Virus record (IMG/VR): IMGVR_UViG_3300032893_000002
Coordinates: 46,668-110,667 of that record
Strand: one strand, 5' to 3'
Length of the DNA stretch: 64,000 nucleotides
Origin: a virus
Shown: in pieces, positions 12,099 to 51,798 of the stretch
Layout: the number at the start of each line of letters is the position of its first letter
Position numbering within the stretch: position 1 is the first letter of the stretch
The notes under the pieces: model-generated
Told to the model about the DNA's origin: nothing
The model's database searches: none
What the model saw: the letters and a program-made list of their open reading frames with translations, nothing else
Position numbers and translations under genes: made by a program

Positions 12099-12410
12099 AT
12101 GAAATTTCGATATCTACTATTATTTCTATTGCTTAATCAATATTCATTTGCGAGCCGTCAAATAGTTTTAACTTGGAATACCTCCGATGGTGCTATAACA
12201 TATAATATTTATCGAGGAACAGATTGTTCTTCGCTTTCATTAGTATCGACAGGCGTTGCAATTACAACATGGACAGATACAGATGTATTAAGAGGGCAAC
12301 AGTATTGCTATGCTGTTACAGCAGTCAATTCTAATGGAGAAAGCGCATACAGTAATACGTATTTAATTCGTATCCCAATGTCAAATTTAACGATGATGGG
12401 GAGTGGCTAG
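12099..12410 (+). CDS. Secreted fibronectin type III (FN3) domain protein
   Basis: Signal peptide MKFRYLLLFLLL. FN3 signature LTWNTSDGAITYNIYRG...YCYAVTAVNSNGES. AAGGAAA RBS. Confidence 0.55.
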   Translation: MKFRYLLLFLLLNQYSFASRQIVLTWNTSDGAITYNIYRGTDCSSLSLVSTGVAITTWTDTDVLRGQQYCYAVTAVNSNGESAYSNTYLIRIPMSNLTMMGSG

Positions 12411-31827: not shown

Positions 31828-31830
31828 TAT

Positions 31831-34800
31831 ATGTCTTTCGGCGACGGCAATCAATATCCTCCAACTAGGTATAACGGGATTCGTACCAACGAATCTGTCC
31901 GCAACACACCTATTACAATCATGTTTGGCCAGAATCGCCTTTCGTGGAAGATGGTATGGTGCGGTAAAGTAGTAAGCAAACAAGCACAATCCCCCGGCGG
32001 CTCTGGTTTAGGGAAAGGAGGAACTCAGTGGGTATATACAACATCTATCATTGGTGTTGTATGTATGGGCGCAGCAAACGGATTGCTATCTGTTTGGGAT
32101 ACAATTGGCAGATTTGCTACGACATCACAAACGGAGCAATATGTCGTACCTACAGGCGGAGGAACATACTATACCCAAAATAGTGAAACATTCATTTTAG
32201 ATTCGGGCGTTTCATACGCCTCTCCTTATTCCATAACAGTAGATGATTACGGATCTCCAGGCAGTACAACAATTACAGGCGTTGCGCAAGTACCGATGCA
32301 AGCTGTTAATGCTTCTCCAGGTGCAGGACAGTATATTGCTAATGCTGCAGCAGGCTCGTATTTCTTTAGCAGTGACATGGCAGGATCAGCTATTGAGATC
32401 ACATATTATTACTGGCGCTATACGATCATTACTAATGAGCTTGATGTGATTCCGTTAATTAATCCATACCAAATTACAGTTAATAATCAGCCTGAATTTA
32501 TATCGGATGAAGGAGTAACTTATTATCCTTCCGGTGTTGCGCTGTCTCCCGTAAGTGGAACTCCAATCGTAACGGGAACTTATAATCCAAATGGTGGTAA
32601 TTATTTGTTTGCTGCTGCCGATGCAGGACAGGGCGTAAATATTTCCTATACGTTTAAAGATCCGAATTCAGATAATAATGCTCCTTCGCAATTAAATTTG
32701 ACATTCTTTAATGGAGCATTGGGCCAACCTGTTTGGAGTTTTTTACAGAGTGATTATCCAGGAGATGCAATTGGATATAGCCAAGTGTGCTATATCGGAT
32801 CTTCGGCGTTATACTTAGGCTTTACTCCAGCTATTCCACAATATAGCTTTGAAATTGCAGGTCCATACCAATTTGGGGGCGGTATTGTAGATGCTTCTCC
32901 TTCCGATTGCATAGAAGCAATTCTTACAGATCCAGGATATGGGATTGGTTTTCCATCGTCTTATCTACAAGTTGGTTCATACTCAAATGTCTCCCTGCCC
33001 GTAACAAATGGCGATTTTGAATCCGGTAGTGGAAGTTCTACTCCTCCAGGATGGATAAACCAAGGAAGTCCAACAATTGCATATGATACTACTACACAGT
33101 TTGCAGGAACACAATCTGTAGTATTAACGGCGACAAATCATAATATAGGTATTATTGATAACACGACCAGTGGAGCTATTGTTAATGGAGTCTATCCATG
33201 TCAGCCATTAGATCAATTCATTCTAACAGGTGCGCTCAAGCAGAACAGTGGTGGAATGACTCCGATCGTATATGTACAATTTTATGATACTGGAAATTCG
33301 CCATTAGCGCTAACAAATTATATTACGCCGCCAGACTCAGTTGTTTGGACTTTTACTGAAGCATTTTCGTCGCCTTCTGTAATGGCTTACTCAAATGCTG
33401 CAGCGCAAGCAGCAAGCTTTCAAGTATTTACATATTCCGCGACTCAATCAACTAGTGCTAATAATGCGTTCGCAGGTCAGGTATTCTCCTTTACGGGAGG
33501 AGCAGTTCAGAATCAAGGCTCTTTCCTTTGTGCAGCTAGTAATACAACAACAATGACTGTAGTTAACTCTTCGGGTGTAGCATCCGGGCTAGCAGGTAAT
33601 GTTTCACCCTTAACAACAGTTTATACAGGAGCTGTAACTACAGGAGCATATTCAAACTTTTCCAATGTCAAGTTTATTGTTACAGGATTTTCCAATTCAG
33701 GGAATGATGGAACTTTTACATGTTACACATCAAATACTTCCGCATTAACTCTCTATAATGGCAACGGAGTAACAGAAACGCATGCAGGAACTGGAACTGC
33801 TACACAATGGTGGAAAAATTATCCAGGCTATAAATTCCAAGCTCCTCTTGATGCTACAACGTTCAAAATTGGAACGAATTGTATGTATACAAATGGAGGA
33901 GGCGCGTCTACAACGCAGTGGGAAGTAGATAATATCACCTTAACACAGATTGTAACAGTGGATGGTTTACAATCTACAATTAGAGCATACTGGGCGGCAA
34001 ATAATTTCTTTATCAGTCCTATAATCGATAATTCTGTTGCTGTTGGTTCAGTTTTAAATGATTGGCTTGAAGCAGGACAGGTAATGGCGTTTTGGAGTGA
34101 AGCTCAGTTAAAATTTGTTCCGTTGGGGGATACGACTTCTATTGCAAATGGCTACACATTCCAACCGCCAACAAATCCAATCGTATCACTTGACTTCGAT
34201 TGCTTTGTTGTTGATATTGGTTCTCCGGAAGATCCGATTAAAATTACTAGAACTCCTTGGCAGAATAGATATAATCGTACACAATTAGGATGGACTGTTA
34301 GAAGTGATAATTATAATTCTGATGTAATGATAGCGCAAGATGAAGCATCGATTGATAGATATGGATTGACCATTGAGCCATCTCGAACCTGCGCTTTTAT
34401 TACAACAGAAGAAGCCGCGCAGTGGGCAGCGAATCTTCGTGTGCAGCGGAGCGTAGCTGTTGTAAATACTTATACATTTCGACTGCAACACAACTATGAC
34501 TTCCTAGAACCAGGCGATATTGTAGAAGTTACTGATGGTTATGCTTCAGACGGAGAGGGAGGTCCATTAGGTTTATATCTTACACCTGTTAGAATTACGA
34601 AGATTGTTAATGACTTTGAGAAAGGGCTATCAATTGAAGCAGAGAACTTTCCGTGGTCAATTGGAACAGCAGTATTATATGATAAGCAAGGGCAATTACC
34701 GCCAAATACACAAGATGCCTATCATGCTGATCCAGGAAATACTGTACCTGTAATTTTTGAAGCTCCAGGAAGATTAGGATTGTATAATGGCAACAACTTA

Positions 34801-37290: not shown

Positions 37291-37291
37291 T

Positions 37292-37648
37292 ATGCGTTTT
37301 CAAGATGAACAATTCTATCCGTCTGCCCTGAAGAAACTGCAATTGCAGATTGCTCGAGATGACCAAGAAGTCATCTTATCGATTAATTCTCCTACATCAA
37401 CCAAAGCTAGAGTTGATCAGGACGTTATTTTAACAATTACTGGCCCGACAACTTCTACAAGCAGAGTTGATCAGGACGTTATTTTAACAATTACTGGCCC
37501 GACAACTTCTACAAGCAGAGTTGATCAGGAAGTTATTCTTTTTATAATGGGCAATACGCCAAAAGTACAAGTTACGCAATCAGCGTATTTAGGCTATAGA
37601 ACAAAGTGGCGAAGTACAATATCAACAGGATGGAGGAAGACATTCTAA
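37292..37648 (+). CDS. Small repeat protein A (KKLQLQ...VDQDVIL repeats)
   Basis: Coupled between the J-like gene and fiber 1. Paralog of 40266..40631. Confidence 0.45.
   Translation: MRFQDEQFYPSALKKLQLQIARDDQEVILSINSPTSTKARVDQDVILTITGPTTSTSRVDQDVILTITGPTTSTSRVDQEVILFIMGNTPKVQVTQSAYLGYRTKWRSTISTGWRKTF
37408..37520 (+). repeat. 54-bp in-frame tandem repeat (~2.6 copies)
   Basis: agagttgatcaggacgttattttaacaattactggcccgacaacttctacaagc repeated, encoding RVDQDVILTITGPTTSTS. Confidence 0.7.
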
Positions 37649-38949
37649 TGGCTGTAAGATTTGCAATGTCTGGCGGGAACTTTATTATAAGTCAGGGAGC
37701 AAGTGTAGCCGGTATATGGGGAACAGTTGGAAGCGGGAATGCTATCAATTCTGCAGCGCCTACAGGCAGAGCTACATCGTATGCTTTCTATAATACAAAT
37801 CCTGGAGCTTTTTCAATTTCTTTACAAACTCCAGTCCTTGGTTCCGGGTACACTACTTTAATTGCAGGCGTTGCATTTTATACAACATCTTTTAGTTCTA
37901 ACACAGCACTTATCCAATTTAAAGATAGCAGTGGTAATATTCAATGCCAACTCCGCATGAATATAACTGGAACGCTATATTTTGCCGATAAAAATGGAAC
38001 ACAGATCGGATCGGGAAGTACTCAAGCTATATTGCTGAATGCTTGGCAATATATCGAGTTTAAAGCGACGTTTAGTAATTCGGGTAGCGGAACATGCGAA
38101 GTTCGTGTTAATGCTGTTACTTGGGTGACGAGTACTGGATTAACGAATGCGCAAAATACAAATGGCGGCGCGATTGTATTATACACATCAGATTTTCATA
38201 CACAATCGTATATGTGTGATTTTTATGCTCTGGATACAGCATCAGGTAGAAACACAAATTATTTAGGTGATGTTACTGTAGGCGAACTTTTTCCAAACGG
38301 AGCAGGCGTTAATTCTCAATGGACTGCAAATGTTGGACCATTCTCATTAACATCTGTTAATAATGCTTCGGGTAGTACTACAGTATATAACGGAACTATT
38401 ACTGGGGGAACATCAAATGCTTATCAGGGATACTACATAGTTATAACAGGTTTCGGGCATAGTGCAGATAATGGAACATTCCTCTGTACAGCATCAAATA
38501 CGACGGCATTAACATTAGCCAATGGTTCTGGTGTATCAGAAACAAATACGGCATCTGCAGCATTCCAAGCAATTGTTCAGCCCGGTATTCATGGCGGCTT
38601 GATAGATAATTCAACAACAAATGTTGGCACGCGACCGAACCAAGATGTAACATATATTTCAGATTCTACATCAGGCGATATATCTGATTATGCGCATCAG
38701 TCACTTTCATTAACAGGAACATTATATGGTATTGTTCATCAAACGTATGCACGTAAAGATGATGCAGGTACGAGGATGATTGCGCAGGTTTGTATTTCCA
38801 CAGGTACGACGGAAGTAAGTTCTAATATATCGCTGAATAACACATATACATATTACCAAGATATATTAGAAAATGATCCTCATACTGGATCAGCATGGAC
38901 TGTTTCAAATTTCAATTCAGCAACGTTTGGCGTTAAGGAGTTGACATAA
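37648..38949 (+). CDS. Tail fiber-like protein, paralog 1
   Basis: Start ATG 37648 with GGAGGAAGA RBS; TAATG coupling. Shares a YQGYYIVITGF...GTFLCTASNTTALTL module with the J-like protein and with 38950..40266. Confidence 0.5.
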   Translation: MAVRFAMSGGNFIISQGASVAGIWGTVGSGNAINSAAPTGRATSYAFYNTNPGAFSISLQTPVLGSGYTTLIAGVAFYTTSFSSNTALIQFKDSSGNIQCQLRMNITGTLYFADKNGTQIGSGSTQAILLNAWQYIEFKATFSNSGSGTCEVRVNAVTWVTSTGLTNAQNTNGGAIVLYTSDFHTQSYMCDFYALDTASGRNTNYLGDVTVGELFPNGAGVNSQWTANVGPFSLTSVNNASGSTTVYNGTITGGTSNAYQGYYIVITGFGHSADNGTFLCTASNTTALTLANGSGVSETNTASAAFQAIVQPGIHGGLIDNSTTNVGTRPNQDVTYISDSTSGDISDYAHQSLSLTGTLYGIVHQTYARKDDAGTRMIAQVCISTGTTEVSSNISLNNTYTYYQDILENDPHTGSAWTVSNFNSATFGVKELT

Positions 38950-40266
38950 ATGAGTATACATTTTATTGAATCTGGAGGGCAGTATCAGTTTAACAGAACA
39001 GCGGCACAAGGTCCCGGTATTTGGAATTCTTCCAGCGGCAGTTTAATTTCAAATGCTTCTGCACGGAATGGGAGCACGTATGCTTATGGCCAGAGTATGA
39101 ACGTCGCCACATTTAACTATGGCGGCGGTACTGGGTATAATGGCATGATCGCAGGGCTTGCATACTTTATCAATTCTTATAGCAATAACCAGAAGATTAT
39201 GGCATTTTTGAATAGCTCTGCCGGAGATCAATGCGATTTAAGAATGAATTCTGTTGGGCAACTCTTTTTTACGCAGAACGGCACAAACTTAGGAGCAGGT
39301 AATCCAACTCTAAGTACAAATCAACTAACGATCGGATCATGGCAGTATATTGAATTCAAAGCTGCATTTAGTACGTCTGGGACAGGAACATGCGAAGTTC
39401 GCGTTAATGGAGTTGTATGGCTAACCCTTACTAGCGTGACAAATGCGGCAACAACAGCTAAAGGCTTTGCAGTAAACTATCTTAATGCTAACGTTAGCGG
39501 AAATGCTGCCATGGATTTCTATCTACTAGATACAGATAATTCACCAAACAATACGTATTTAGGAGATATCACAGTAGCAGAGATTTATCCGAATGGAGCG
39601 GGCGTCCATTCACAATGGTCTGAAGGCACGAACAATGGCGGAACTGCTTCGCCTCCTCCATTTGCTATTTCATCAGCAGCAAACGCGTCGGGCGGAACTC
39701 AAGTTTTAACTAGAACCACAACGGCAACAGGTGAATCCGCTAATGCATATCAAGGATACTATCTTACAACAAGTTCTTTCTCACATGGCGTAAACAATGG
39801 AACGTTTTTATGTACAGCATCGTCAACTACTACAATTACAGTTGCTAATGCAGCAGGTATTTCTGATACAACTGGATCAGTAGATTTTCAAGCAATTGTT
39901 CAGCCCGGTATTCATGGAGGCATAGTTGATAGCTACGCTACAACAAACGTTGGCACTCGTCCTAATGGAACTGCCGCATATATAACGGATTCAACATCGG
40001 GGCATCAGCAAGATTATGCCCACCAAACGTTATCCTCTGTTTCACAGATTTTTGCTGTGGTACATCAGACTTATGCGTCTGGAACAGGCGGTGTGCAAAT
40101 TAATCAGCAATGTTTATCTGGCGGAACGACAGAAACCAGTTCTGCTATTTCACCCGGAGCATCGTTTCAGTATTATCAAGATGTATTAGAAACGGATCCA
40201 AATACATCTGCTCAGTGGACTCTGTCTAACTTCAATAATGCAACATTCGGAGTTAAAACAGTTTAA
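38950..40266 (+). CDS. Tail fiber-like protein, paralog 2
   Basis: Collinear similarity to 37648..38949 at both ends, with a divergent centre. Confidence 0.5.
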   Translation: MSIHFIESGGQYQFNRTAAQGPGIWNSSSGSLISNASARNGSTYAYGQSMNVATFNYGGGTGYNGMIAGLAYFINSYSNNQKIMAFLNSSAGDQCDLRMNSVGQLFFTQNGTNLGAGNPTLSTNQLTIGSWQYIEFKAAFSTSGTGTCEVRVNGVVWLTLTSVTNAATTAKGFAVNYLNANVSGNAAMDFYLLDTDNSPNNTYLGDITVAEIYPNGAGVHSQWSEGTNNGGTASPPPFAISSAANASGGTQVLTRTTTATGESANAYQGYYLTTSSFSHGVNNGTFLCTASSTTTITVANAAGISDTTGSVDFQAIVQPGIHGGIVDSYATTNVGTRPNGTAAYITDSTSGHQQDYAHQTLSSVSQIFAVVHQTYASGTGGVQINQQCLSGGTTETSSAISPGASFQYYQDVLETDPNTSAQWTLSNFNNATFGVKTV

Positions 40267-40631
40267 TGAAACTTGATCGTGAGCTGAAGTTTGTTCCTGC
40301 AGTACTGAAGAAATTACAACTTCAAGCTACTGCGCAAGATGACCAAGATTTTGTCTTAGTCATTTTTCAAGCGAATCCTTCAGCAAAAGTAGACCAAGAC
40401 ATAACATTAGTTGCTGCGCAGCGAACTGCAACAGCAAAAGTAGACCAAGATGTCATATTAGTTGCTTACTCGCGTCCTGTCGGTAATGCGACTCAATTAA
40501 TGACTTGGGATGAACCCGATCTTCAATATATTATAAAGAAAAGGAGGAATGAAGGACTTTATATTCAAGCCAGTGTTCCTGTCTTTCAGACAACAACAGC
40601 ATTTTTTCCGGTTGTATTTGTCGTAACTTAA
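40266..40631 (+). CDS. Small repeat protein B (paralog of 37292..37648)
   Basis: LKKLQLQATAQDDQDFVL...VDQDITL...VDQDVIL. TAATG coupling to fiber 2. Confidence 0.45.
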   Translation: MKLDRELKFVPAVLKKLQLQATAQDDQDFVLVIFQANPSAKVDQDITLVAAQRTATAKVDQDVILVAYSRPVGNATQLMTWDEPDLQYIIKKRRNEGLYIQASVPVFQTTTAFFPVVFVVT

Positions 40632-40640
40632 GGAGCGATT

Positions 40641-41042
40641 ATGCCGGCATTACTAGGTTTTGAATCAGTAACAAAGCTTGATGTATATGTATTTCTTATT
40701 ATAAGCTTCTTTGTGTTTGTTACACTGATAGCATTTAAGCGATCAGTTGTACCTTCACTCCAATCTCTTATGTCTTTTATTGCTCTGCTTAATAGTAAAG
40801 GGGGGCTGATCTTTGTTCTATTAATTTTGTGGATTATATCATTTGCTGCAAGCATCACCCTAGGACTTTGGGCATTGATTAAAGGAGTAAGTCCACAAAA
40901 TGCAATATTAATGATGTTGTTATCTTGGGTTACAGGACAGGCATGGGGGAATATTAATGGCGCGTTACTCAAGACGATGACGGGGGAACAGCCGCCGATT
41001 ACAGCACCAGCCTCACCTAAACCCGAAGAGCCCAAAGCGTAG
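40641..41042 (+). CDS. Multi-pass membrane protein (holin-like candidate)
   Basis: Three or four hydrophobic helices. Chosen over the overlapping minus-strand ORF because of operon context. Confidence 0.4.
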   Translation: MPALLGFESVTKLDVYVFLIISFFVFVTLIAFKRSVVPSLQSLMSFIALLNSKGGLIFVLLILWIISFAASITLGLWALIKGVSPQNAILMMLLSWVTGQAWGNINGALLKTMTGEQPPITAPASPKPEEPKA

Positions 41043-41053
41043 GATGGATAACT

Positions 41054-41308
41054 ATGCATATGCGGAGACTATTTCAGTTAATTATTCCAAGAGGTGTAAA
41101 TGCGATCCAAGCTCTGGCATTCGGAGTATTTTTTGGTATATTCATAATATGTGTTGAATACCTGCTTAGATTTTATATCAGATTAGATTTCTTTTACATA
41201 GCTGCTATAATTTCTGTGATTGGAGCTGCTGCATTTACTTTACTTTTTTACTTAATTCTAAATATTCAGGATGAGGTAGATGAAATTCACTCGGATCCAA
41301 AAACTTAA
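41054..41308 (+). CDS. Two-TM small membrane protein (holin-like)
   Basis: 84 aa with two hydrophobic helices and a charged C-terminus. Confidence 0.4.
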   Translation: MHMRRLFQLIIPRGVNAIQALAFGVFFGIFIICVEYLLRFYIRLDFFYIAAIISVIGAAAFTLLFYLILNIQDEVDEIHSDPKT

Positions 41309-41633
41309 ACTCTTTACACGATTAGCCGTAATATGGGGCGGCGTATTTGTGATTGTTTGGACTCCTTTCCTAATTTTTGCTCAAGGAAATTTATCTACCC
41401 TGTCTACACATTCCGCAGTTCAAGATGAACGAATAACAGATATATACAAAAAAGTAGAAGATCAATCTACACAAATAGTTAAAATGCAAGGAGAGTTGAC
41501 AGAACTTCAACGCGATGTTTACATGTGGAAAGGTGCTGTTGTTGGATTTGGAGCATTTGTAAGCTTTTTAGAAGTTCTTCAAGCTCTCGGTGCTCTTGGT
41601 AGAGAAAAGTATAAAAAGCAAAGTTTATCTTGA
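41280..41633 (+). CDS. N-terminal TM plus coiled-coil protein (spanin/antiholin-like)
   Basis: One N-terminal TM segment, then a predicted coiled coil. Confidence 0.3.
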   Translation: MKFTRIQKLKLFTRLAVIWGGVFVIVWTPFLIFAQGNLSTLSTHSAVQDERITDIYKKVEDQSTQIVKMQGELTELQRDVYMWKGAVVGFGAFVSFLEVLQALGALGREKYKKQSLS

Positions 41634-41674
41634 CAGTAGGTTGTTTTTACAATATCATACTATTAATTATTGAT

Positions 41675-42079
41675 ATGTGGACGTTTGAACAGAGTACTGG
41701 CCGATTTAAAAACGACTCTGGTGATATTATAAGTATTGGATATGCAGGCAAAGGAGCTGGAAAAAATAATCCTGCTATGCAATGCGTAAAAGATACAGGG
41801 CCACTTCCAGTAGGTAACTATACAATTTCAGCCCCAACAGATGATAAAGTTGTAGGGCTATTCGCATTAAGACTTATTCCGGATCCGAAAAACGATATGT
41901 GTGGTAGAAGTGATTTTTTTATTCATGGAGAAAATCCAGCACATATCGGGCAGTCGTCAGATGGCTGCATAATTCTGCCAATTTATATTAGAAAGCTAAT
42001 ATGGCGCAGCGGAGACAAGTTGTTAGCAGTTGTAACCGGGCTTTCACCCTTACAGACATATCCAGATACACAAGTTTAA
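41675..42079 (+). CDS. YkuD-like L,D-transpeptidase-fold protein (endolysin candidate)
   Basis: FFIHGENPAHIGQSSDGCIIL matches the LD-transpeptidase catalytic H...S.GC(I/V) motif. Likely start at MWTFEQ. Confidence 0.5.
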   Translation: MWTFEQSTGRFKNDSGDIISIGYAGKGAGKNNPAMQCVKDTGPLPVGNYTISAPTDDKVVGLFALRLIPDPKNDMCGRSDFFIHGENPAHIGQSSDGCIILPIYIRKLIWRSGDKLLAVVTGLSPLQTYPDTQV

Positions 42080-42091
42080 CAAGAGGAGAAT

Positions 42092-42721
42092 ATGAAAAGT
42101 TTTGCCGATAAGTTCTTAGCTTCTATGCTTGCATTAGTTTTCGTGATTTCAACTACTGCATGCAATTCCAATCTCGCATTAACAGAAGTTGAACGCTTTC
42201 AGCCAATCGTAACAAACGTATTAGTGCTTGCATGCACCTTTACAAGTAATCCTCTGTGCCAATCAGCAGGCGCAAAAATTAATCAAGATGTCGCCAGTGT
42301 GATCCAGCTTTGGACTGCATATAATGCAGCTGTGCAGAGTGGAACAGCAACACAAGCAATTTGGAATGATTTAAATGCCGCGTTTACAACATTTGAACAA
42401 GACTCTGCGCAAATCTTCGCACTCGTAAATGTTGTGGACCCTGCACATCAACAGGAAATTGCCGCAATTGTTGCAGCAGCGCAGGTGCTACTTGCTTCTA
42501 TTGAAGTAGCGTTTCCGGCTTCGCCGTCAGCGTCAGCTAAACGTGCAAGTGTATTTAAAACATCTGCGCCATTAAAAGATAAAGCCGCATTCGAAGCTTG
42601 GGAGAAAGATTATAATAACAAAGTTAATATTCTAAAGAAAGCGCATCCTAAAGCCGGCTTAAAGAACGTTCATTTTCACGGTTCGTTTGCTAGAGTAACA
42701 ACGTTTGGAATAGCAAAGTAA
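42092..42721 (+). CDS. Putative lipoprotein
   Basis: Signal peptide with ISTTAC lipobox-like Cys. GGAG RBS. Confidence 0.4.
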   Translation: MKSFADKFLASMLALVFVISTTACNSNLALTEVERFQPIVTNVLVLACTFTSNPLCQSAGAKINQDVASVIQLWTAYNAAVQSGTATQAIWNDLNAAFTTFEQDSAQIFALVNVVDPAHQQEIAAIVAAAQVLLASIEVAFPASPSASAKRASVFKTSAPLKDKAAFEAWEKDYNNKVNILKKAHPKAGLKNVHFHGSFARVTTFGIAK

Positions 42722-42722
42722 T

Positions 42723-42932
42723 ATGAAAAAATACATAGTGTTGCTACTGTTGTGCGGTACAAGTTTTGCTTCAACATTGGATAGCAAATCACTAATGGTT
42801 GGTATCTCAATTGGAGCAGGCAGTTTCGTAACAAGAAATTATGTGGTTTTGCCTGTAGCAAAAACTACAGCTAAAGCTGCAAAGAAAACTGCGCGTGCTA
42901 CAAAACATGTAGCAACACTAGGCAGGAGATAA
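42723..42932 (+). CDS. Small secreted protein
   Basis: Signal peptide MKKYIVLLLLCGTSFAS. Confidence 0.3.
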   Translation: MKKYIVLLLLCGTSFASTLDSKSLMVGISIGAGSFVTRNYVVLPVAKTTAKAAKKTARATKHVATLGRR

Positions 42933-42933
42933 A

Positions 42934-43701
42934 ATGCAGAGAAAATATGGAAGAAAGATTCCTGCTCCTATGCCGGCGCATCGAATGCTTTCACGTTCAG
43001 ATGCAGTAAAAGATGTTGTAGATTTAAGAAGCTGGTGCGGTCCAATTAAAGATCAAGGACAACTTGGATCTTGCACAGGTCATGCATTTTCTTCTGGAAT
43101 GGAATGGATCTGGAGACGATATTATAAGAAAGAGCCAATTTTATCACCACTCTATATCTATTCAAGAGAATTACTGGCAGATGGTAATTTTCCAAATGAT
43201 GACGGATCTACCGGCGAAACAGGTTGCAATGTAGCTATAGTATATGGCTGCTGCGAGGATTCGCTATATCCTGATTCTACGCGTAATATCCAGCAACCTA
43301 CGAGCATAATGGATACAAATGCTCAACAATATAGACTTGGAGCTTATCACGGGTTAAATGGTTCTAGCTCGGCTATATCCGTTATTGCTGACCCAACACC
43401 ATGGCCTGTAGAAATTGGCTTTACTGTTTATGATTCTTTTGAAAGTGAAGAAGTAGCCAAGACAGGAATTTATAATCCAAAATCAGGAGAGACAGTACTA
43501 GGAGGGCACGAAGTATTAATGATAGGAGTAGATACTGGAGTCGCTCCCACACTTCGTCCTGCAAATTGTCCGCCCGCAGCATTAATTCAAAACAGCTGGG
43601 GAACAGATTGGGGAATCGGAGGCTGCTTCTGGATGGCGTTATCTGTTTTGGACGATCCTCAAACAGATCTCAAAATTGCGCACGCCGGGCATCCATGGTA
43701 A
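42934..43701 (+). CDS. Papain-like (C1 family) cysteine peptidase
   Basis: Catalytic triad motifs QGQLGSCTGHAF (Cys), GGHEVLMIGVD (His), NSWGTDWGIGG (Asn). Confidence 0.65.
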   Translation: MQRKYGRKIPAPMPAHRMLSRSDAVKDVVDLRSWCGPIKDQGQLGSCTGHAFSSGMEWIWRRYYKKEPILSPLYIYSRELLADGNFPNDDGSTGETGCNVAIVYGCCEDSLYPDSTRNIQQPTSIMDTNAQQYRLGAYHGLNGSSSAISVIADPTPWPVEIGFTVYDSFESEEVAKTGIYNPKSGETVLGGHEVLMIGVDTGVAPTLRPANCPPAALIQNSWGTDWGIGGCFWMALSVLDDPQTDLKIAHAGHPW

Positions 43702-43728
43702 GATTTTTTAGTAAGGGGTGTAAATAAT

Positions 43729-43929
43729 ATGGGATCTATACTTGGATGGCTTGTGAAGATTTTTAATTTACTTCAACGAATATCTCAACAAACTGAACAG
43801 ATTCTAATTGGTCAGCAACAGTTACAAATTGAAATTGTTGAGATCCAATCCGATCTAGAAATAATTAAAAAAGTAGTCGGAATTGGAGTTCCTGTTTCTG
43901 AAACGATAGAATGGGCTTCACCCAAATAA
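43729..43929 (+). CDS. Small hypothetical protein
   Basis: ORF with GGGG RBS only. Confidence 0.25.
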   Translation: MGSILGWLVKIFNLLQRISQQTEQILIGQQQLQIEIVEIQSDLEIIKKVVGIGVPVSETIEWASPK

Positions 43930-43950
43930 AAATCAAGGAGAAATAAAATA

Positions 43951-44274
43951 ATGCCAGCAACAATCACAGATATTCAAACAGTAGCAGTTTCTGGAATCGC
44001 CGCAGTTGACGCTGCTGGTGAGCCAGTTGCTGTAGATACAACCAAGATCACATGGACCGTAGGCGATCCAACATTACTAACAATTGTGTTAGATCCTACA
44101 TCTGGTCTACCAACATTTGGATTTAACAAAGGTGTATTTACTGGAACTTTACCGGCAACATCACAAGTGTCTGGTTTAGATACAGTTAATAACCTGACCT
44201 CGACCGATAGTATTACTGTTAATACTAGCGCTGCTACAACCGAGACAATTCAGTTTGCTGTGCCAACCCCGTAA
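43951..44274 (+). CDS. Hypothetical protein, possible Ig-like (BIG2-type) domain
   Basis: AAGGAG RBS. T/V-rich beta pattern. Followed by a terminator. Confidence 0.3.
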   Translation: MPATITDIQTVAVSGIAAVDAAGEPVAVDTTKITWTVGDPTLLTIVLDPTSGLPTFGFNKGVFTGTLPATSQVSGLDTVNNLTSTDSITVNTSAATTETIQFAVPTP

Positions 44275-44300
44275 CTAACACTGCTTGAAAAAGCTAATAA

Positions 44301-44335
44301 AGGCCGACTAGTTCAAATCTAGCTCGGCCTTTTTA
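44301..44335 (+). terminator. Rho-independent terminator
   Basis: AGGCCGACTAG...CTAGCTCGGCCT hairpin followed by TTTTT. Confidence 0.6.
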
Positions 44336-44353
44336 CTTAAGTATGGTTAAGTA

Positions 44354-44536
44354 ATGTCGGACTATTCTGGAGTACTTTATCAGTATAGCTGCAATAAATG
44401 CGGCAGTTCGTATCTAATAGAACTGAGAGCAGGCCCGCTCGCCGCGCCTTTTCACTGTCCAACTTGTAGCGCTTCATCCCCAGAATTTCATTGGGATTAC
44501 TTGCGCTTCCAGTATATAAAAGGAAGCACATTTTAG
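44354..44536 (+). CDS. Small zinc-ribbon protein
   Basis: CNKCG...CPTC. Confidence 0.3.
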   Translation: MSDYSGVLYQYSCNKCGSSYLIELRAGPLAAPFHCPTCSASSPEFHWDYLRFQYIKGSTF

Positions 44537-44545
44537 GAGACGTAA

Positions 44546-45436
44546 GTGGCTAATGATACAGCAATGCTGTACCGAGATTTAAATGCTAAGCAAAAAGCAA
44601 CATTTGAGTGGATGGCTAATTTATGGAAAAAGCAGCAGCCACTTGATAAAGGCGTGCGGATGTCCACGCACATGAATTATGCTGAACAAACAAAACACGT
44701 AGTTTGGCACCTACCTGCGACACTTAAACAAATCGAATTAATTCATATTACAGATGTTCAATTTGGACATGTATACTGTAAAGTCGATCGTGTAGTCGAA
44801 TACCGAGATTGGGTATTATCCGAACCTAACAGGTATATGTTATGGGGAGGAGATATGATTGATGCGTATGCGTTAATGAAATCTCCGGGAAGTCCTTGGG
44901 AAGAAGTAGGGGATAGTCAATCACAAGCAAATCTATTTGCAGAGATTTGGGGTCCTGCACGACACAGGATTTTGGGATATGTAGGAGGGAATCACGAACG
45001 TCGTGGCCTTTCCAGTTTCGGAGATTTAGGGGTTTACATAGCCAATATCTTACAAATTCCATATAGTTCAGGACAACAATTTATAGATATTCATTTCGGT
45101 AAGTGGGCACCGTTTAGAGTACATCTTTGGCATGGTCGGGGAGCTGCAAAAACAAAAGGCGCAAAGATAAATCTAATTCACGAAATCATGAAGAAATCAG
45201 ACTGTGACCTAATTCTATTAGGTCATTTACATGATGTCTTGATGACATTCGATTGGAGAGTTGTTCGAGATAACAGTTCTAATATTTGTTTAAAGAAGCA
45301 AGGAGGGGCCATGTCGTCAAGTTTCCTAGAATTCTTCGGAACATATGCAGAAGTAGCTGGATTAAACCCTGCAGACGTTATGATGGCATGTACAACTCTA
45401 TTTCCAAATGGGCATTGGCGGCTTCAGTTCCAATAA
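44546..45436 (+). CDS. Calcineurin-like metallophosphoesterase (possible SbcD/Mre11-like nuclease)
   Basis: Motifs ITDVQFGH, GGDMIDA, GGNHE, GHLHD. Confidence 0.6.
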   Translation: MANDTAMLYRDLNAKQKATFEWMANLWKKQQPLDKGVRMSTHMNYAEQTKHVVWHLPATLKQIELIHITDVQFGHVYCKVDRVVEYRDWVLSEPNRYMLWGGDMIDAYALMKSPGSPWEEVGDSQSQANLFAEIWGPARHRILGYVGGNHERRGLSSFGDLGVYIANILQIPYSSGQQFIDIHFGKWAPFRVHLWHGRGAAKTKGAKINLIHEIMKKSDCDLILLGHLHDVLMTFDWRVVRDNSSNICLKKQGGAMSSSFLEFFGTYAEVAGLNPADVMMACTTLFPNGHWRLQFQ

Positions 45437-45457
45437 TAGTAAGCTGGGAGCTAGGCA

Positions 45458-45835
45458 GTGAGAAGCGATCGTTCACTAAAAATGTGGTATCGCGAAATTA
45501 ATGCGCGGTTCTTTGATAATGAACTGCCCGATAACATTGTTGTGAAGTGGGGAGGACCAGAAGAGGAAGATGATGAGGCTAACTGGGAAGAGAAGTATAA
45601 TGGCTATGCCCAACGTCTAATTGGAGATCCTCTCCACTATGCTGTTATAGTATTAAATAATGATTTAAGACATAATCCAACATTCAAGCTATCGATCCTA
45701 GTTCACGAAATGATTCATGTTGCAACAGATTTTAGAGACAGTCACGGAGATGCCTTTAATAACTGGCTTAAGAAATTGATGGACAAAGGGTTATTTAAGA
45801 AGGGCGCTCTGTTTAGAGGGATAACTTTATTTTGA
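45458..45835 (+). CDS. SprT-like zinc metallopeptidase domain protein
   Basis: EINARFFDNELPD...IVLNNDL...LVHEMIHVATDFRDSHGDAFNNWL (HExxH). Confidence 0.5.
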   Translation: MRSDRSLKMWYREINARFFDNELPDNIVVKWGGPEEEDDEANWEEKYNGYAQRLIGDPLHYAVIVLNNDLRHNPTFKLSILVHEMIHVATDFRDSHGDAFNNWLKKLMDKGLFKKGALFRGITLF

Positions 45836-45839
45836 AATT

Positions 45840-46208
45840 ATGTGTGCTACGGGGTGTCACGTGTGTGGAATAGCTAAATTAACGCCAGAACAGAAAAAGT
45901 ATTATGATGAACGAAAAGCAACACGTCAGCGTTTAGATTTACGTGGGATAGAACTTCATACTATAGAAAAATATCCTGAGCAAATTCAAGAAATTGAAGA
46001 TGGCTTGCGTAAATGGTGGGAAGAGCGGCAAGATCAGCCTGATGAAATTGTAGTAGATAGTGTAGAAGCTCTTATGTGTTTGCTTAAACAGGAACCCAAA
46101 GGATCCTCTTACTACACAAAATGGCACTCATATGTTTACTGGTATAAAACTAAATTTTCAATGAATCCTGAATGCGATTCGAGAATACCCATTTTTGGGA
46201 ATATTTGA
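45840..46208 (+). CDS. Hypothetical protein
   Basis: ORF only. Confidence 0.3.
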   Translation: MCATGCHVCGIAKLTPEQKKYYDERKATRQRLDLRGIELHTIEKYPEQIQEIEDGLRKWWEERQDQPDEIVVDSVEALMCLLKQEPKGSSYYTKWHSYVYWYKTKFSMNPECDSRIPIFGNI

Positions 46209-46218
46209 AGGAGAATTC

Positions 46219-46413
46219 ATGGCGGGAACAAATCAATGGGGTAACTATTACGACAACACAGGAACGGTTCCTATCGAGTATGGTAATCCAGGAGTATCGG
46301 AGAATAATCCTTGGGGATTTCCTGTGCCGGGAGTCGATTCAGAAAGTAATCAAAATGTAAATGAAACGAATCCTAATCCTCCTACAGGAGGGATTAATCC
46401 GTATCCGTTTTAG
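46219..46413 (+). CDS. Small G/N/P-rich hypothetical protein
   Basis: GGAG RBS, start MAGTNQWG. Confidence 0.3.
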   Translation: MAGTNQWGNYYDNTGTVPIEYGNPGVSENNPWGFPVPGVDSESNQNVNETNPNPPTGGINPYPF

Positions 46414-46493
46414 GAGGTACGTGTTTTAAGCTCGCTTGTAACCTGTAAAGTATTTGCGACGAATGCATTTAATTCATGATTGAAGAATTAATT

Positions 46494-46600
46494 TGGCGCC
46501 CCTGGAGGGATTCGAACCCCCGACCAATGAGTTAATACCCACTGCTCTTTTGAGGGCGGATTTAGAGTCCGCAGCTCTGACCAGACTGAGCTACAGGGGC
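46494..46600 (-). tRNA. tRNA gene with anticodon CUA (amber-suppressor-like), class II-like with unusually long variable region, genomically encoded CCA
   Basis: Reverse complement reads GCCCCTG-TA-GCTC-AGTCTGGTCA-GAGC-T-GCGGA-CUCUAAA-TCCGC-(34 nt)-GGGGG-TTCGAAT-CCCTC-CAGGGGC-G-CCA. Acceptor, D, anticodon and T arms are well formed. The variable region holds an 8-bp hairpin. Coordinates +/-1. Confidence 0.6.
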
Positions 46601-46735
46601 GCATTAAAAATTATGTTTACCAATTCTTCTGCTCAATCTATTCTTTATTGTCCAAATTGTGGAAAACAACTTTACGAGCATCGTTGTAAGTTAATCTGCG
46701 AATGTGGTTTCTTTCTAAGCTGCAGCGATTTTTAC

Positions 46736-46764
46736 TAGACATTCATTCCAATGTGCGTTATAAT
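46736..46764 (+). promoter_or_regulatory. Near-consensus sigma70-like promoter
   Basis: TAGACA-N17-TATAAT; GGAGG RBS at ~46785. Confidence 0.45.
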
Positions 46765-46798
46765 ATAAACTACCTGTCACATTAGGAGGTAATTTAGC

Positions 46799-46999
46799 AT
46801 GGCAGTTGGAAATAATGATTTGCAAGGCAACCTAGTTAATCAATATGGACCTTGGCCGACGACAGGCATTGGTACTGGAGGCGCAGTTACAATTTCTTCC
46901 ACTCTACAGTTAACCAATTTTTACGTTCAAGGTAACGGTGGTTCGAAAGCTAATAGCACTACTAACTTCCTCGCACAACTCCTCGCAGATACCCCGTAA
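46799..46999 (+). CDS. Small stand-alone protein (66 aa, G/T/N-rich) with dedicated promoter and terminator
   Basis: MAVGNNDLQGNLVNQYGPWPTTGIGTGGAVTISS... Strong RBS. Terminator 7 nt downstream. Confidence 0.45.
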   Translation: MAVGNNDLQGNLVNQYGPWPTTGIGTGGAVTISSTLQLTNFYVQGNGGSKANSTTNFLAQLLADTP

Positions 47000-47005
47000 G
47001 TTAAA

Positions 47006-47037
47006 AGGGGCAAGTTTAACTAGCTTGCCCCTCTTCT
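47006..47037. terminator. Bidirectional rho-independent terminator between convergent genes
   Basis: GGGGCAAG-tttaacta-CTTGCCCC, with T-runs on both strands (TCTTCTT on plus, TTTTAA on minus). Confidence 0.6.
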
Positions 47038-47045
47038 TAACTCAT

Positions 47046-47462
47046 TCAATGTAAGCTGAAGCTAGAGATTCCCGGAGAAGGATTTGAACCCTCATTGCTC
47101 CGTACTGGAGATCCTCGCATTTGAATGATCCGGGAGTGTTCACAACATTCGTTCGGTTTATAGACACGATATTCTTTTAGTATATCTCTCTGCTGCCCCC
47201 AAATAGGTGCAGTAGCGATTGCTGTTAGCCCATAATTAAAATCTGGTTCAATCCACGCGAAATGCGGAATTTTGTTCTTGCGTAGTTTAAGTTGGACTTT
47301 TTGAAGGGATTTTGTGTGAGGCACACCTATGGCGACGATATTAGGTACGCCTTCTTCACCGCGAAGCGCTGCCATCATCATCGTTGCGTGATTGGATTGG
47401 ACGATTTGCTGAGCTAAGGGAAGATCTGTTCGGAAGAACAGATACACGTAACGTTCGGACAT
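47046..47462 (-). CDS. PTH2-type peptidyl-tRNA hydrolase, divergent copy
   Basis: YVYLFFRTDLPLAQQIVQSNHA and FAWIEPDFNYGLTAIATAPIW match the PTH2 motifs (VRTDL...AAQCSHA; IRDAG.T...TVLAIGP). Confidence 0.55.
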   Translation of the reverse strand: MSERYVYLFFRTDLPLAQQIVQSNHATMMMAALRGEEGVPNIVAIGVPHTKSLQKVQLKLRKNKIPHFAWIEPDFNYGLTAIATAPIWGQQRDILKEYRVYKPNECCEHSRIIQMRGSPVRSNEGSNPSPGISSFSLH

Positions 47463-47508
47463 CTATGTCATATGCTATCTCCTATGTTATATTTGTTTTG
47501 ATTCTTTG

Positions 47509-49155: not shown

Positions 49156-51798
49156 TCATGCTTCTTCTTTCAACTCACTTATAGTATTCGATATATTACC
49201 AGACATCATTGTGCTTGAAAGTGCAAACTGTCCAATCGAGTACGCCTGTGCCAATAACACTAAGAATCGATCTCTTGTATTTCTAGATTTTTGAACATAA
49301 AGTCTAGCTAAGCCTAATCGTTGTTCTTCTGGAGTTTGGCTATAAGTTACTACAATATCAGCCGTTCCTATCTTACTCCAATCTTCTGCAACGTTTGTGG
49401 ATGTTACTAACTTGGCAGATTCAGATTCTCTATTACCTTGCGTAGCCGTTACGACTGCCATATTCCGTGCTACAGCTAATCCGCGTAAATCTCTATATAA
49501 TCTTCCAGTATCAATTCTAAGCGAATCAGCATTAAGATACATCAGATCTGCATAATCCAAAACTAAGCAATCAGGAACAAAGTTCTGTTCTTGTTTCAAC
49601 TGTTCTAAATATAAGGTAAGTTGCGGTACGGTAAGAGCTCCAGTAGGGAATTCCTTAATTAATAGCCTTGGATAGCTCTTCATGTCCAGCAATCGTTTAT
49701 GGAGCTCCCTACGCTTAGCAGGGATCGAATTTCGTTGTATATTACGAAACTGGATACTTACTTGTCCATTGACGTCTGTTTCAAAATAGGCTGTATTAAC
49801 TTCTGCTGCTTCGTCTCTTGTTAAACTAAACAAAGATTGAATATATCTCTGTGCAGTCATCTTCTCATCATTCTCAAGCGTGATATGCAGCACGGAATGA
49901 TGATGCATTAGTGAATGCTTACCTACATTTACAAGAAACCAACTATTATGCGTGATGATATTGCCTGCAATAAAGTTGTGATTATCTTTAACTGAGAGAT
50001 CATATGTTTCTATATCTCCGACATACTCGATAGTCTTTACTGAATCAAAAAAGGCATTATCAGATATCTTTATGCAGCCTTTTGGAAACGCAATTTTTGC
50101 AGTATAAGAACATTCGGGCTGACTATATGTTATTAGTTTTTGTTGGGGTTTATATGAAATCAATTTCCCATTTTTATTATAATAGTGTACTTCTGCGTTT
50201 TTTCTAGCGTAACAAACTTTGTCTCTTTTTGGAGATATAACGAGCTTTTGAATTCCGAAACGATCTACAACTATATTAGCTCTTCGAACTTTTTCGGGAA
50301 CAATAAAGCCAATTTTTTTAATGAACTTTAGAACATTTAGTTTGCCCGTAATCACTACATAAGCATATCCTGGAAGTTGTTTTCCTTTCCATTCTGCTGT
50401 AAATGTGTCGAATTTAGCGATAATGCCTAAACGCATAAGAAGATAATTAATATCTTCTACGAGACGTTTACTTGAAAGACTTAATTCTATTACTGGGCAA
50501 TGTGTTTCATGTGCATATATCGACCCATCACAAGAAAAGAATACTTTTAAAAATTCTGCAATCAGTTCATCATTTAGATTGAAAATAAATTCAGGTATGC
50601 ATTTTACATTGGATTTCTTTCCTGCAAGACCTGTTAAGCGAAGCAATTCTTTTACTTTACTATTATGCTTGCCTTTATTTTCCTCATTGCATACAATATA
50701 GCAAAATCCTTCTTCCCAAGATTTATTATCTTTTCCGAAAGAACAACGATCCCCCAGAAATTCCACGCAATGCTGAAAGTCTTTTTGAATTGTTGGATCA
50801 ATATTTGTAAATGTCGGAGTATTTTGTGTTAAGCCTCCCTCGGCAATTAGATACGCAAGTAGACGTACAACTTCTGGTTCTACTTTATTCTTTCCTAAAT
50901 CACTTAATTTAAGTGGAACAGCTATTTTATCTTTTGTAATATCAATATCTTTTATAGCTTTCCATCCAGTTTCAGTTAAAAATGGGTGGTCTTCTGAAAC
51001 CGATATTTCACGCCCTAAGCGTGTAGTAATTTTATAGCATTTCTTTTTACCATTTTTCCACCATCCATTCACATCTGCTACAACGAACTTTTTTTGTTCT
51101 TCCGAGAACGATATAATAGATGTGATCTTTTGTTCTACGGCCTTTTTAATTGTTATCCTTGAACCATCCGGAAGAACTACAAGTTCATTTTCAGCAATGC
51201 ACTTCCCGCGCCCTGCCGCGCCCAAGAAGAGGTACAATGTTTTACGCGATGGACGCACGCCTCTTACGTCTAAAAGATCTACTCCTGATGAAAAGAATTC
51301 TTCCTGTTCTTCCAAATCAAGAAAGCTTAGAGCTTGTTGTGGATCTTTTAGCCATATTCCTGTTGATCCTTCAGGTCCAAGACCTCTATTTTTGAATGCT
51401 GTTTCTTGAGCTTTTTCAAGCTCGCCTTGCCCAAGCAATTCTAAAGCATCTCGTAGTTGCGTCGTCAGTTGTTGAGAAGCTACGAATCGCTCTAACTGTT
51501 CTAAAACGAATGCAGCATCTACTTGTCCTGCCTGTTTCCTGAGAAAATCATATTGCTGCGCTAATAGGGCACCTTGCTGTCCCCGACGCATATCTGCTTC
51601 GAGGAGATATTCAAGTGCTCCCTTTGGTGCATTTCCGAATTTTTTGATGTGGTCTAGAGCTGCTACAGCTATCTGTCTATTTGTAGGATTAGTAAAAATA
51701 TCACTGCTAGGAATTTTAACAGCTAGCGACGCAGCTCTCTCGTCATCCCAACAGAGGAGACTTAGTACTGCCTCCTCTAAGGCTGCTTGCGAGATCAT
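49156..51798 (-). CDS. DnaB-like replicative helicase interrupted by an intein
   Basis: DnaB-like N-terminal domain. Walker A GAAGRGK|S is split by a 419-aa insert that begins with Cys and ends with HN. Walker B LVLDYADLM downstream. Confidence 0.65.
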   Translation of the reverse strand: MISQAALEEAVLSLLCWDDERAASLAVKIPSSDIFTNPTNRQIAVAALDHIKKFGNAPKGALEYLLEADMRRGQQGALLAQQYDFLRKQAGQVDAAFVLEQLERFVASQQLTTQLRDALELLGQGELEKAQETAFKNRGLGPEGSTGIWLKDPQQALSFLDLEEQEEFFSSGVDLLDVRGVRPSRKTLYLFLGAAGRGKCIAENELVVLPDGSRITIKKAVEQKITSIISFSEEQKKFVVADVNGWWKNGKKKCYKITTRLGREISVSEDHPFLTETGWKAIKDIDITKDKIAVPLKLSDLGKNKVEPEVVRLLAYLIAEGGLTQNTPTFTNIDPTIQKDFQHCVEFLGDRCSFGKDNKSWEEGFCYIVCNEENKGKHNSKVKELLRLTGLAGKKSNVKCIPEFIFNLNDELIAEFLKVFFSCDGSIYAHETHCPVIELSLSSKRLVEDINYLLMRLGIIAKFDTFTAEWKGKQLPGYAYVVITGKLNVLKFIKKIGFIVPEKVRRANIVVDRFGIQKLVISPKRDKVCYARKNAEVHYYNKNGKLISYKPQQKLITYSQPECSYTAKIAFPKGCIKISDNAFFDSVKTIEYVGDIETYDLSVKDNHNFIAGNIITHNSWFLVNVGKHSLMHHHSVLHITLENDEKMTAQRYIQSLFSLTRDEAAEVNTAYFETDVNGQVSIQFRNIQRNSIPAKRRELHKRLLDMKSYPRLLIKEFPTGALTVPQLTLYLEQLKQEQNFVPDCLVLDYADLMYLNADSLRIDTGRLYRDLRGLAVARNMAVVTATQGNRESESAKLVTSTNVAEDWSKIGTADIVVTYSQTPEEQRLGLARLYVQKSRNTRDRFLVLLAQAYSIGQFALSSTMMSGNISNTISELKEEA
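49945..51201 (-). mobile_element. Intein with LAGLIDADG homing endonuclease, inserted in helicase P-loop
   Basis: Begins CIAENELVVLPDGS and ends IITHN followed by S. Internal LLAYLIAEGGL (LAGLIDADG motif). Confidence 0.6.

Follow-up and report, generated by a model that had tools for sequence, protein, structure and literature searches.

The C1A peptidase and its active site

We analyzed a 64,000-nucleotide (nt) stretch of viral DNA, hereafter the window (positions 46,668–110,667 of IMG/VR record IMGVR_UViG_3300032893_000002), with particular attention to a gene for a papain-like cysteine peptidase of family C1 located at 42934..43701 on the plus strand. The open reading frame (ORF) started with ATG, encoded 255 amino acids (aa) and had an AGGAG-type ribosome-binding site 7 nt 5' of the start. 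The three motifs from which the initial annotation had deduced a C1 peptidase were GSCTGHAF (aa 45–52, nt 43066–43089), GGHEV (aa 190–194, nt 43501–43515), and NSWGTDWG (aa 220–227, nt 43591–43614); the deduction was borne out by these coordinates as well as by profile matches, solved relatives, the predicted structure, and residue conservation.

The ORF matched the Pfam profile Peptidase_C1 (PF00112) with an E-value of 2.9e-9 and 37.8 bits, compared to a gathering cut-off of 20.7, the match spanning profile positions 5–203 of 220. In PHROGs, it matched phrog_16701, annotated as "peptidase". The closest solved relative in a sequence search was xylellain of Xylella fastidiosa (PDB 3OIS, E=3.6e-13), with cathepsin B and dipeptidyl peptidase I next in rank. 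An AlphaFold2 model built from 62 homologues had a mean per-residue confidence (pLDDT) of 93.5 and a predicted template-modelling score (pTM) of 0.91. A Foldseek search of this model against PDB again returned xylellain at the top (E=4.6e-18, TM-score 0.77), then many procathepsins, with TM-scores of the top matches ranging from 0.72 to 0.78.

Alignment with papain identified the predicted active-site residues. Gln41 of the oxyanion hole (codon 43054..43056) corresponded to papain Q19, the catalytic Cys47 (43072..43074) to C25, Asn220 (43591..43593), followed by Ser221 and Trp222, to N175, and Trp222 itself to W177. His192 (43507..43509), equivalent to papain H159, lies in a GGH that paired with the catalytic-His GGH of xylellain and cathepsin B. 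Among the 62 homologues, Gln41, Cys47, Asn220, Ser221, and Trp222 were invariant, and His192 was at least 90% conserved; Cys47 was also invariant across 120 homologues. Thus, the catalytic Cys and His, on whose alignment the initial annotation had staked its assignment, were in register with papain, xylellain, and cathepsin B. Since the profile score, the papain fold, the Cys/His register, the oxyanion Gln six residues before the Cys, and the Asn-Ser-Trp after the His were all found, the ORF is, as judged from sequence and model, a C1A papain-type peptidase of the xylellain type with an intact Gln41/Cys47/His192/Asn220 site.

The traits of secreted papain and cathepsin zymogens, namely a signal peptide, an I29 pro-domain, and three conserved disulfides, were not found in this protein. 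The initial annotation had left open a pro-region or a signal: hydropathy revealed no hydrophobic N-terminus or signal peptide, and the alignments revealed no I29 pro-domain, only about 22 N-terminal residues beyond mature papain. The disulfide cysteines of papain were absent, the position of papain C22 being occupied by Leu44, and Cys47 and Cys107 were the sole invariant cysteines of the family. The N-terminal 30 residues and the C-terminal tail D-x-K-I-x-H-x-G-x-P-W were conserved within the clade and ordered in the AlphaFold2 model. An insertion between His192 and Asn220 was also clade-specific and was not present in the chromosomal representative. By its sequence, the protein is a short, intracellular-type bacterial C1A form and not a classical secreted zymogen; folding in the cytoplasm would fit, because the hydrophobic N-terminus is missing and the papain cysteines are lost. 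PF00112 was the only Pfam family matched: neither CHAP nor NlpC/P60 gave a match, and no wall-binding domain or known wall-hydrolase family of the kind expected of an endolysin was found in Pfam. PADLOC returned no match for the window peptidase, for its chromosomal relative, or for six neighbouring window proteins.

The gene cassette of the window phage

The window derives from an uncultured tailed phage. A head–tail adaptor gene was located at 12403-13392, tail proteins were encoded at 30276-37290, followed by two tail-fibre-like proteins of phrog_2448 (37606-40266), and replication genes occupied the minus strand from approximately 47 kb. No match to deposited phages was found for the region by megablast, and a scan of the window for tRNA genes revealed none. 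A protein identical to the window peptidase was also encoded on a 180-kb metagenomic contig. The role of a prohead protease was considered and rejected: the gene lies 3' of the tail-fibre genes, about 30 kb from the head–tail adaptor, and its product belongs to no known prohead protease family.

The peptidase gene is the last of a compact cassette comprising, in order, genes for three small transmembrane (TM) proteins, a Tlde1/YkuD-like enzyme, a lipoprotein, a 69-aa protein, and the peptidase. Intergenic gaps ranged from -29 to 12 nt, and the last three genes are spaced by a single nt each; a promoter and terminator scan of 37000-47500 remained at the background level expected by chance. The candidate holins, YkuD-like enzyme, and lipoprotein that the initial annotation had noted upstream proved to be real neighbours, judging by TM segments, a Tlde1_dom match, and a signal sequence with an invariant lipobox Cys, respectively.

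All genes of the cassette are on the plus strand. The 133-aa protein (40641..41042), a holin candidate with two to three predicted TM segments (Kyte–Doolittle segments 9–38 and 42–83), and the 84-aa protein (41054..41308), a holin or antiholin candidate with two (hydrophobic segments 14–44 and 40–73), had no match in Pfam, PHROG, or NCBIfam. The 117-aa protein (41280..41633), whose coiled-coil-like middle lies between an N-terminal TM segment and a hydrophobic C-terminal one, may be holin-like or i-spanin-like; its matches to PHROG and NCBIfam families were below threshold, and a similar architecture (TM plus coiled coil, cluster g12) was encoded in some chromosomal islands. We infer the holin assignment of these small proteins from their architecture and position only.

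The Tlde1/YkuD-like enzyme (41630..42079), a candidate endolysin, matched Pfam Tlde1_dom (E=3.2e-14) and phrog_24118, a group of unknown function (E=4.4e-38, aligned from residue 16). The true start of the gene is likely the ATG at 41675, which gives a protein of 134 aa. The catalytic His/Cys motif HGENPAHIGQSSDGCI (H...SDGCI) was intact, and a signal peptide was not found. This protein was the sole recognisable wall enzyme of the window cassette; a Tlde1-type L,D-peptidase would be unusual as a phage endolysin.

The recurrent partner of the peptidase, a 209-aa lipoprotein, was encoded at 42092..42721. It contains a signal sequence and a lipobox with Cys24, which was invariant in its family. 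Its AlphaFold2 model (pLDDT 84.7) was a bundle of four to five helices with a poorly defined tail (residues 198–209, pLDDT <50). The lipoprotein had no relative in Pfam, PHROG, or NCBIfam, and the best structural match by Foldseek against PDB was insignificant (E=0.33). The flexible basic C-terminal tail was present in one subfamily. The motif of this tail, K-x-H-x-H-S-K-x-V-R-x-x-T-F-G, was evaluated as a universal docking or cleavage site and rejected: it was missing from many lipoproteins encoded next to C1 genes, and the lipoprotein also occurs in loci without any peptidase.

Between the lipoprotein and peptidase genes, the window encodes a 69-aa protein (42723..42932) with a signal-like N-terminus, a hydrophobic middle, and a basic tail ending in KHVATLGRR; it is possibly a third component of the lipoprotein–C1 module. 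Similar small ORFs with a hydrophobic helix and a His/Lys-rich tail were found at this position in six other loci (L053, L155, L159, L160, L163, and L165; loci of our survey are numbered L, proteins P). Several loci with a tail-less lipoprotein encode a basic-tailed small protein, while the window has both the tail and the small protein. There are hints, with exceptions, of a tail module that is fused to the lipoprotein or split off into small proteins.

Downstream of the peptidase gene, two small ORFs (43729..44274, plus strand) coding for a 66-aa coiled-coil protein and a 107-aa protein of Ig-like appearance are possibly associated with the cassette. Their build resembles c2, a cytoplasmic protein with coiled-coil and Ig-like parts encoded in some related loci; a split copy of c2 at this position had no statistical support (E ~0.1-0.25). 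Further 3' of the cassette, a calcineurin-like phosphoesterase resembling DNA-repair exonucleases (Metallophos/phrog_7339) was encoded at 44546-45436 (+), followed by an SprT-like metalloprotease at 45458-45835 (+). The same order was kept in a 164-kb relative (L001), which adds a trypsin-like peptidase. Two genes on the minus strand of the window carried insertions: a DnaB-like helicase gene (49156-51798) was split by an intein harbouring a LAGLIDADG endonuclease (Intein_splicing E=9.8e-21, LAGLIDADG_3 E=4.7e-15), and a QueE-like radical-SAM gene (52061-53668) had an insertion of the Hint/intein type that includes an HNH endonuclease (PT-HINT E=5.6e-15), its Intein_splicing match being just under the cut-off.

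Relatives, host, and gene neighbourhoods

The initial annotation had described C1 peptidases as unusual in phages. This holds for deposited phage genomes, where relatives were found in 3 of 50,697 records, and fails for metagenomes. A large protein database contained 799 homologues, more than 120 of which were 60–75% identical to the window protein, 240–284 aa long and all metagenomic; a profile search returned 13,094 representative clusters at E<=1e-3, of which 175 remained at E<=1e-30. The presence of C1A in a phage is therefore not new, since a 2023 survey had already reported the acquisition of xylellain-type genes by Caudoviricetes (Myoviridae and Siphoviridae) and giant viruses (PMC10380794).

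In a search of one genome per species of Bacteria and Archaea, close cellular matches (46–64% identity) nearly all belonged to Acidobacteriaceae, Terriglobales, and Terriglobia, many of them on megabase contigs. For this reason, the host is most likely acidobacterial and probably belongs to the class Terriglobia, as far as these sequence matches tell. The assignment is only moderately secure because the G+C content of the window (0.40) is well under that of the acidobacterial genomes with the closest homologues (0.54-0.60) and of most related phage contigs (0.49-0.64); L001, L007, and L050 alone share the low value of the window.

Several close homologues were interrupted by apparent inteins (L042 6825-8639, L165 5780-7660, L166 5651-7528, P0165, and P0167). 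The four insertion sites were all in catalytic motifs: G45|S46, S46|C47, just after GGHxVL, and within NSWG|xDWG; at S46|C47, the catalytic Cys serves as the +1 splice residue. Protein P0165 (947 aa) holds two inteins, and several inteins contained LAGLIDADG-like endonuclease motifs. Multiple inteins are unusual in a small accessory protease, and these sequences suggest a widespread and strongly conserved gene.

Distant relatives were fused to lysin domains. The annotated endolysin of Alicyclobacillus phage MMB025 (753 aa; L137 4896-7157 = PV686781.1 47982-50243) consists of Peptidase_C1 (39-225), an Ig-like region, an Rv2525c glycoside-hydrolase-like domain, and PG_binding_1. One of the few homologues of this lysin, P0154, combines C1 with an SLH wall-binding domain. 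In a viral structure library, matches to the model of the window peptidase included phage proteins named "Peptidoglycan binding-like" and "N acetylmuramidase", with mycobacteriophage Lysin A as a distant one. The fused lysins are about 28% identical to the window protein, so they show what phage C1 domains can do and not the role of the window protein.

To survey gene neighbourhoods, ORFs were called in all fetched loci, the neighbours were clustered, and local profiles were built; the C1 relatives in these loci were 37–75% identical to the window protein. Counts for phages refer to 35 non-redundant phage-type loci with at least 1.5 kb upstream of the C1 gene, the lipoprotein being counted when on the same strand and within 700 nt upstream. 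The lipoprotein family was the sole strongly recurrent neighbour among the clusters: a homologue was encoded upstream of C1 in 20 of the 35 phage loci and in all 88 chromosomal loci of Acidobacteriaceae/Terriglobales, where its gene usually overlaps C1 by 4 nt. The enzyme accompanying the pair varied. Tlde1 was encoded nearby in the window, L001, L007, L009, and L035, SLT in L002, and Hydrolase_2 in L003, while Peptidase_M15_3 together with a two-TM protein accompanied the pair in a chromosomal island. A constant pair with a changing endolysin type is the usual signature of mosaic lysis cassettes. The lysis-like character of the region, as the initial annotation had called it, was thus strengthened: the pair recurs near four endolysin families in phages and chromosomes, and a distant homologue is fused to lysin domains. 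A DUF5675 protein occupied the wall-enzyme slot of L139; it was considered as a relative of Tlde1 and rejected, the alignment being suggestive in that it pairs the His and Cys motifs, but weak (E=0.097). In a rough neighbour-joining tree of C1, lipoprotein-linked loci occurred on all deep branches, and other contexts were nested and intermixed in the crown; the sequences suggest that the lipoprotein linkage is ancestral and that the C1 gene moved several times.

A second, very divergent papain-like family, phrog_19005, was encoded directly 3' of the same lipoprotein family in two loci (L139 6774-7514 and L223 5627-6370). These proteins contain a GDC...GGH motif pair and gave weak cathepsin matches at the right positions.

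The acidobacterial island encodes, in this order, a large secreted protein, Peptidase_M15_3, an approximately 66-aa two-TM protein, the lipoprotein, and C1 (88 of 88 non-redundant loci; L061-L129 and L178-L220, with the C1 match at ~8001-8700 in each). It is flanked on one side by a 2-oxoacid dehydrogenase E2-like gene and on the other by nitroreductase-family and glutaminyl-tRNA-synthetase-like genes. The large secreted protein (800–1650 aa) is weakly similar to the tail-fibre-like proteins of the window. From its gene content, the island looks like a domesticated lysis cassette, possibly a release system resembling type 10 secretion.

Proposed role and comparison with known systems

The peptidase gene is contiguous with putative holin-type membrane proteins and a wall-degrading enzyme, as expected for a member of a lysis cassette. 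We give an even chance to the reading that, by its sequence context, the C1A endopeptidase assists the phage lysis cassette as an accessory enzyme that acts late and on the envelope. Like a canonical endolysin, the protein would be synthesised in the cytoplasm with no signal peptide, and would reach the periplasm only once the upstream holin-type proteins had permeabilised the inner membrane. There, its partners would be the Tlde1-like wall enzyme, the outer-membrane lipoprotein translated together with it (42092-42721), and possibly the 69-aa protein. It would cleave a protein or peptide component of the envelope, the likeliest candidates being the tethers between the outer membrane and the wall or the phage's own lipoprotein/tail module, and with this cleavage the last barrier to phage release would give way. 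Of the substrates suggested by the initial annotation (S-layer, sheath, or Braun-lipoprotein-like tethers), none was singled out by the sequence evidence; its alternative of a role in entry or virion protein processing may fit the E217-like myovirus contigs, in which the gene is next to Phage_Mu_F in the head–tail module. A soluble enzyme released by holins is favoured because of the missing export signal, the lost disulfide cysteines, the translational coupling to exported partners, and the spanin-like position of the gene.

Several observations weigh against this role. The functional assignment of the peptidase derives wholly from its gene neighbourhood, the small membrane proteins match no known holin family in Pfam, PHROG, or NCBIfam, and the closest solved relative, xylellain, has no known substrate (PMC12090721). 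Together, the 117-aa TM/coiled-coil protein and the lipoprotein could act as spanins of an unusual kind, and no definite step would then be left for the peptidase. Moreover, 15 of the 35 phage loci had no lipoprotein next to C1. In six of these 15, c2 is encoded immediately upstream of C1 or close to it, and six have Phage_Mu_F at a distance of no more than 4 kb, inside head–tail modules of E217-like myoviruses. Conversely, the lipoprotein was found without any peptidase, adjoining SLT, Tlde1, or a two-TM protein, in four loci (L140, L224, L225, and L227). The occurrence of the lipoprotein in such cassettes indicates that it is a cassette component itself and that the peptidase is a frequent, dispensable add-on. 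Distant phage homologues of C1 (25–34% identity) had heterogeneous neighbours, among which wall enzymes accounted for 1 of 87 (an amidase).

Other roles were weighed on the same evidence. The peptidase may be a second peptidoglycan-directed endopeptidase, cutting stems or cross-links as part of the endolysin activity, which we regard as unlikely. To our knowledge, characterised members of family C1 proper cut L-peptide bonds and not bonds of D-amino acids or iso-peptide bonds. The protein has no wall-binding domain, its constant partner is a lipoprotein and not a wall-binding module, and it is accompanied by separate enzymes of the SLT, Hydrolase_2, and M15_3 types, each of which suffices as the endolysin of other phages. 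Nevertheless, Tlde1 enzymes are known for an activity by which the neighbouring protein may trim stems only, leaving room for a cross-link cutter; the fusion of C1 to a muramidase-like domain and PG_binding_1 in phage MMB025 and the viral structure matches, which include peptidoglycan-binding and muramidase-named proteins and distantly Lysin A, also speak for a wall substrate. So does the fold itself, a papain-like one being widely used by wall peptidases such as CHAP and NlpC/P60 (PMC10318531).

A virion-carried effector, packaged with or near a MuF-type protein and ejected to cut envelope or defence proteins, appears quite improbable. MuF domains are known to carry toxin domains that are ejected, and a gene 65–69% identical to that of the window adjoins Phage_Mu_F or lies within 4 kb of it in the head–tail module of E217-like myoviruses (L005, L006, L037, L039, L041, and L045). 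However, in the tree these contexts sit inside the crown and seem to be secondary, the window gene is embedded in a lysis-type cassette, and chromosomal copies exist without any virion. A small local profile found no MuF in the window, and no MuF–C1 fusion occurred among the eight long multi-domain representatives inspected, which contained tandem C1 domains, zinc ribbons, or inteins instead.

We consider it very unlikely that the peptidase is a processing protease for the lipoprotein, the small basic-tailed protein, or the large tail-fibre-like proteins. Tail-fibre-like genes (37606-40266) do precede the cassette, as in the chromosomal island does the gene of a large secreted protein that weakly resembles them, and the flexible, conserved basic tail of the lipoprotein, replaced by separate basic-tailed mini-proteins where it is missing, could be a substrate; yet the tail motif is not found in many C1-linked lipoproteins. 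Signal peptides direct the export of the lipoprotein and the large secreted proteins, whereas the peptidase lacks one. Contact would thus occur only after membrane permeabilisation, which makes processing a special case of the lysis role preferred above. The least probable role, in our estimate, is that of a cytoplasmic protease for host takeover or anti-defence, unrelated to lysis and placed in a plastic accessory region. The missing export signal, the mobility of the gene between contexts, and the DNA-related neighbours downstream (the exonuclease-like Metallophos/phrog_7339 and SprT-like proteins) are in line with it, but it leaves unexplained why the gene is coupled almost obligately to that of an exported lipoprotein, why the holin/M15 cassette is fixed in all 88 chromosomal loci, and why distant relatives are fused to lysin domains; the absence of a PADLOC match also argues against it.

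Returning to the envelope-directed lysis enzyme, a broader proposal is that the lipoprotein and C1A, with or without the basic-tailed protein, constitute an enzyme-based module for the last lysis step in Acidobacteriota phages that does what spanins do for proteobacterial phages and was also captured and fixed in the holin/M15 cassette of Acidobacteriaceae/Terriglobales for the programmed release of the large secreted protein; this we put forward only tentatively and hold to be rather doubtful as a whole. The passage of the outer membrane by phages of diderms other than Proteobacteria is poorly known, and a sizeable share of phages in general has no recognisable spanins (bioRxiv 10.1101/515445). 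A protease travelling with an outer-membrane lipoprotein is a concrete candidate for the missing lysis step in Acidobacteriota, which are among the most abundant soil phyla and have few cultured phages. If true, this would be the first functional setting for xylellain-type bacterial C1A peptidases. The conserved chromosomal cassette of Acidobacteriaceae provides a genetically tractable setting in cultured strains. The linkage to a cassette, the lipoprotein partner, the fixed chromosomal copy, and the inteins in catalytic motifs appear to be undescribed so far. Our literature search found no paper linking Peptidase_C1 to phage lysis, and a survey of viral lytic proteins published in 2025 is silent on both papain and Acidobacteria. 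The protein looks like a new member of a known family and the cassette like a new variant of the phage lysis cassette.

Compared to xylellain (3OIS), the window peptidase is likewise a single domain with the same catalytic residues and without a papain-type disulfide at the C22 position. Its identity to xylellain is approximately 24%, its N-terminal extension is shorter (the DQG motif is at residue 40 versus ~71 in 3OIS), it has the insertion between His192 and Asn220 and the conserved C-terminal tail, and xylellain has not been reported to be linked to lysis genes. With papain and cathepsins L, K, and B, the protein shares the fold and the Gln-Cys-His-Asn(-Trp) active site; it differs from them in the low identity (15–20%) and in the lack of the I29 pro-domain, signal peptide, and conserved disulfides.

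The place of the pair in the cassette, after the holin and endolysin, and its spanin-style outer-membrane lipoprotein resemble those of spanins (lambda Rz/Rz1) and of the cationic peptide disruptin of phage phiKT (gp28), the proteins known for the final lysis step of Gram-negative phages. Lacking a TM domain to anchor the peptidase in a membrane, the pair does not qualify as a spanin; in addition, the C-terminus of the lipoprotein is basic and not hydrophobic, and its ~185 mature residues form a helical bundle, whereas o-spanins are small and proline-rich. Its action would be enzymatic, in contrast to the membrane fusion by spanins or the peptide insertion by disruptin. About 15% of phages have no spanins and must use something else, the disruptin of phiKT being one such non-spanin (bioRxiv 10.1101/515445). 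LysB, the mycolyl-arabinogalactan esterase of mycobacteriophages, is a soluble enzyme of the lysis cassette that, once the endolysin has acted, severs the connection of the outer layer to the wall (PMC5707550). The role proposed for the peptidase is of the same kind, although LysB is an esterase acting on a lipid–sugar bond of the mycobacterial envelope and has no sequence or fold kinship with C1.

Type 10 secretion systems are exporters derived from lysis cassettes, such as ChiWXYZ of Serratia and those of Yersinia and Salmonella (PMC4259817, PMC10847048). The acidobacterial island similarly looks derived from a phage cassette and adjoins the gene of a large secreted protein; its lipoprotein and C1 occupy the position of the ChiY/ChiZ spanins. 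It differs from these systems in having a protease instead of spanin genes and in belonging to another host phylum, and it is known from its genes alone. CHAP and NlpC/P60 lysins share with the window peptidase the papain-like fold and the Cys-His site, and distant C1 relatives are similarly fused to lysin domains; however, they represent other families, and the window peptidase stands alone, without a wall-binding module. A possible parallel to the pair itself is NlpI–Prc of E. coli, in which a lipoprotein positions a periplasmic protease.

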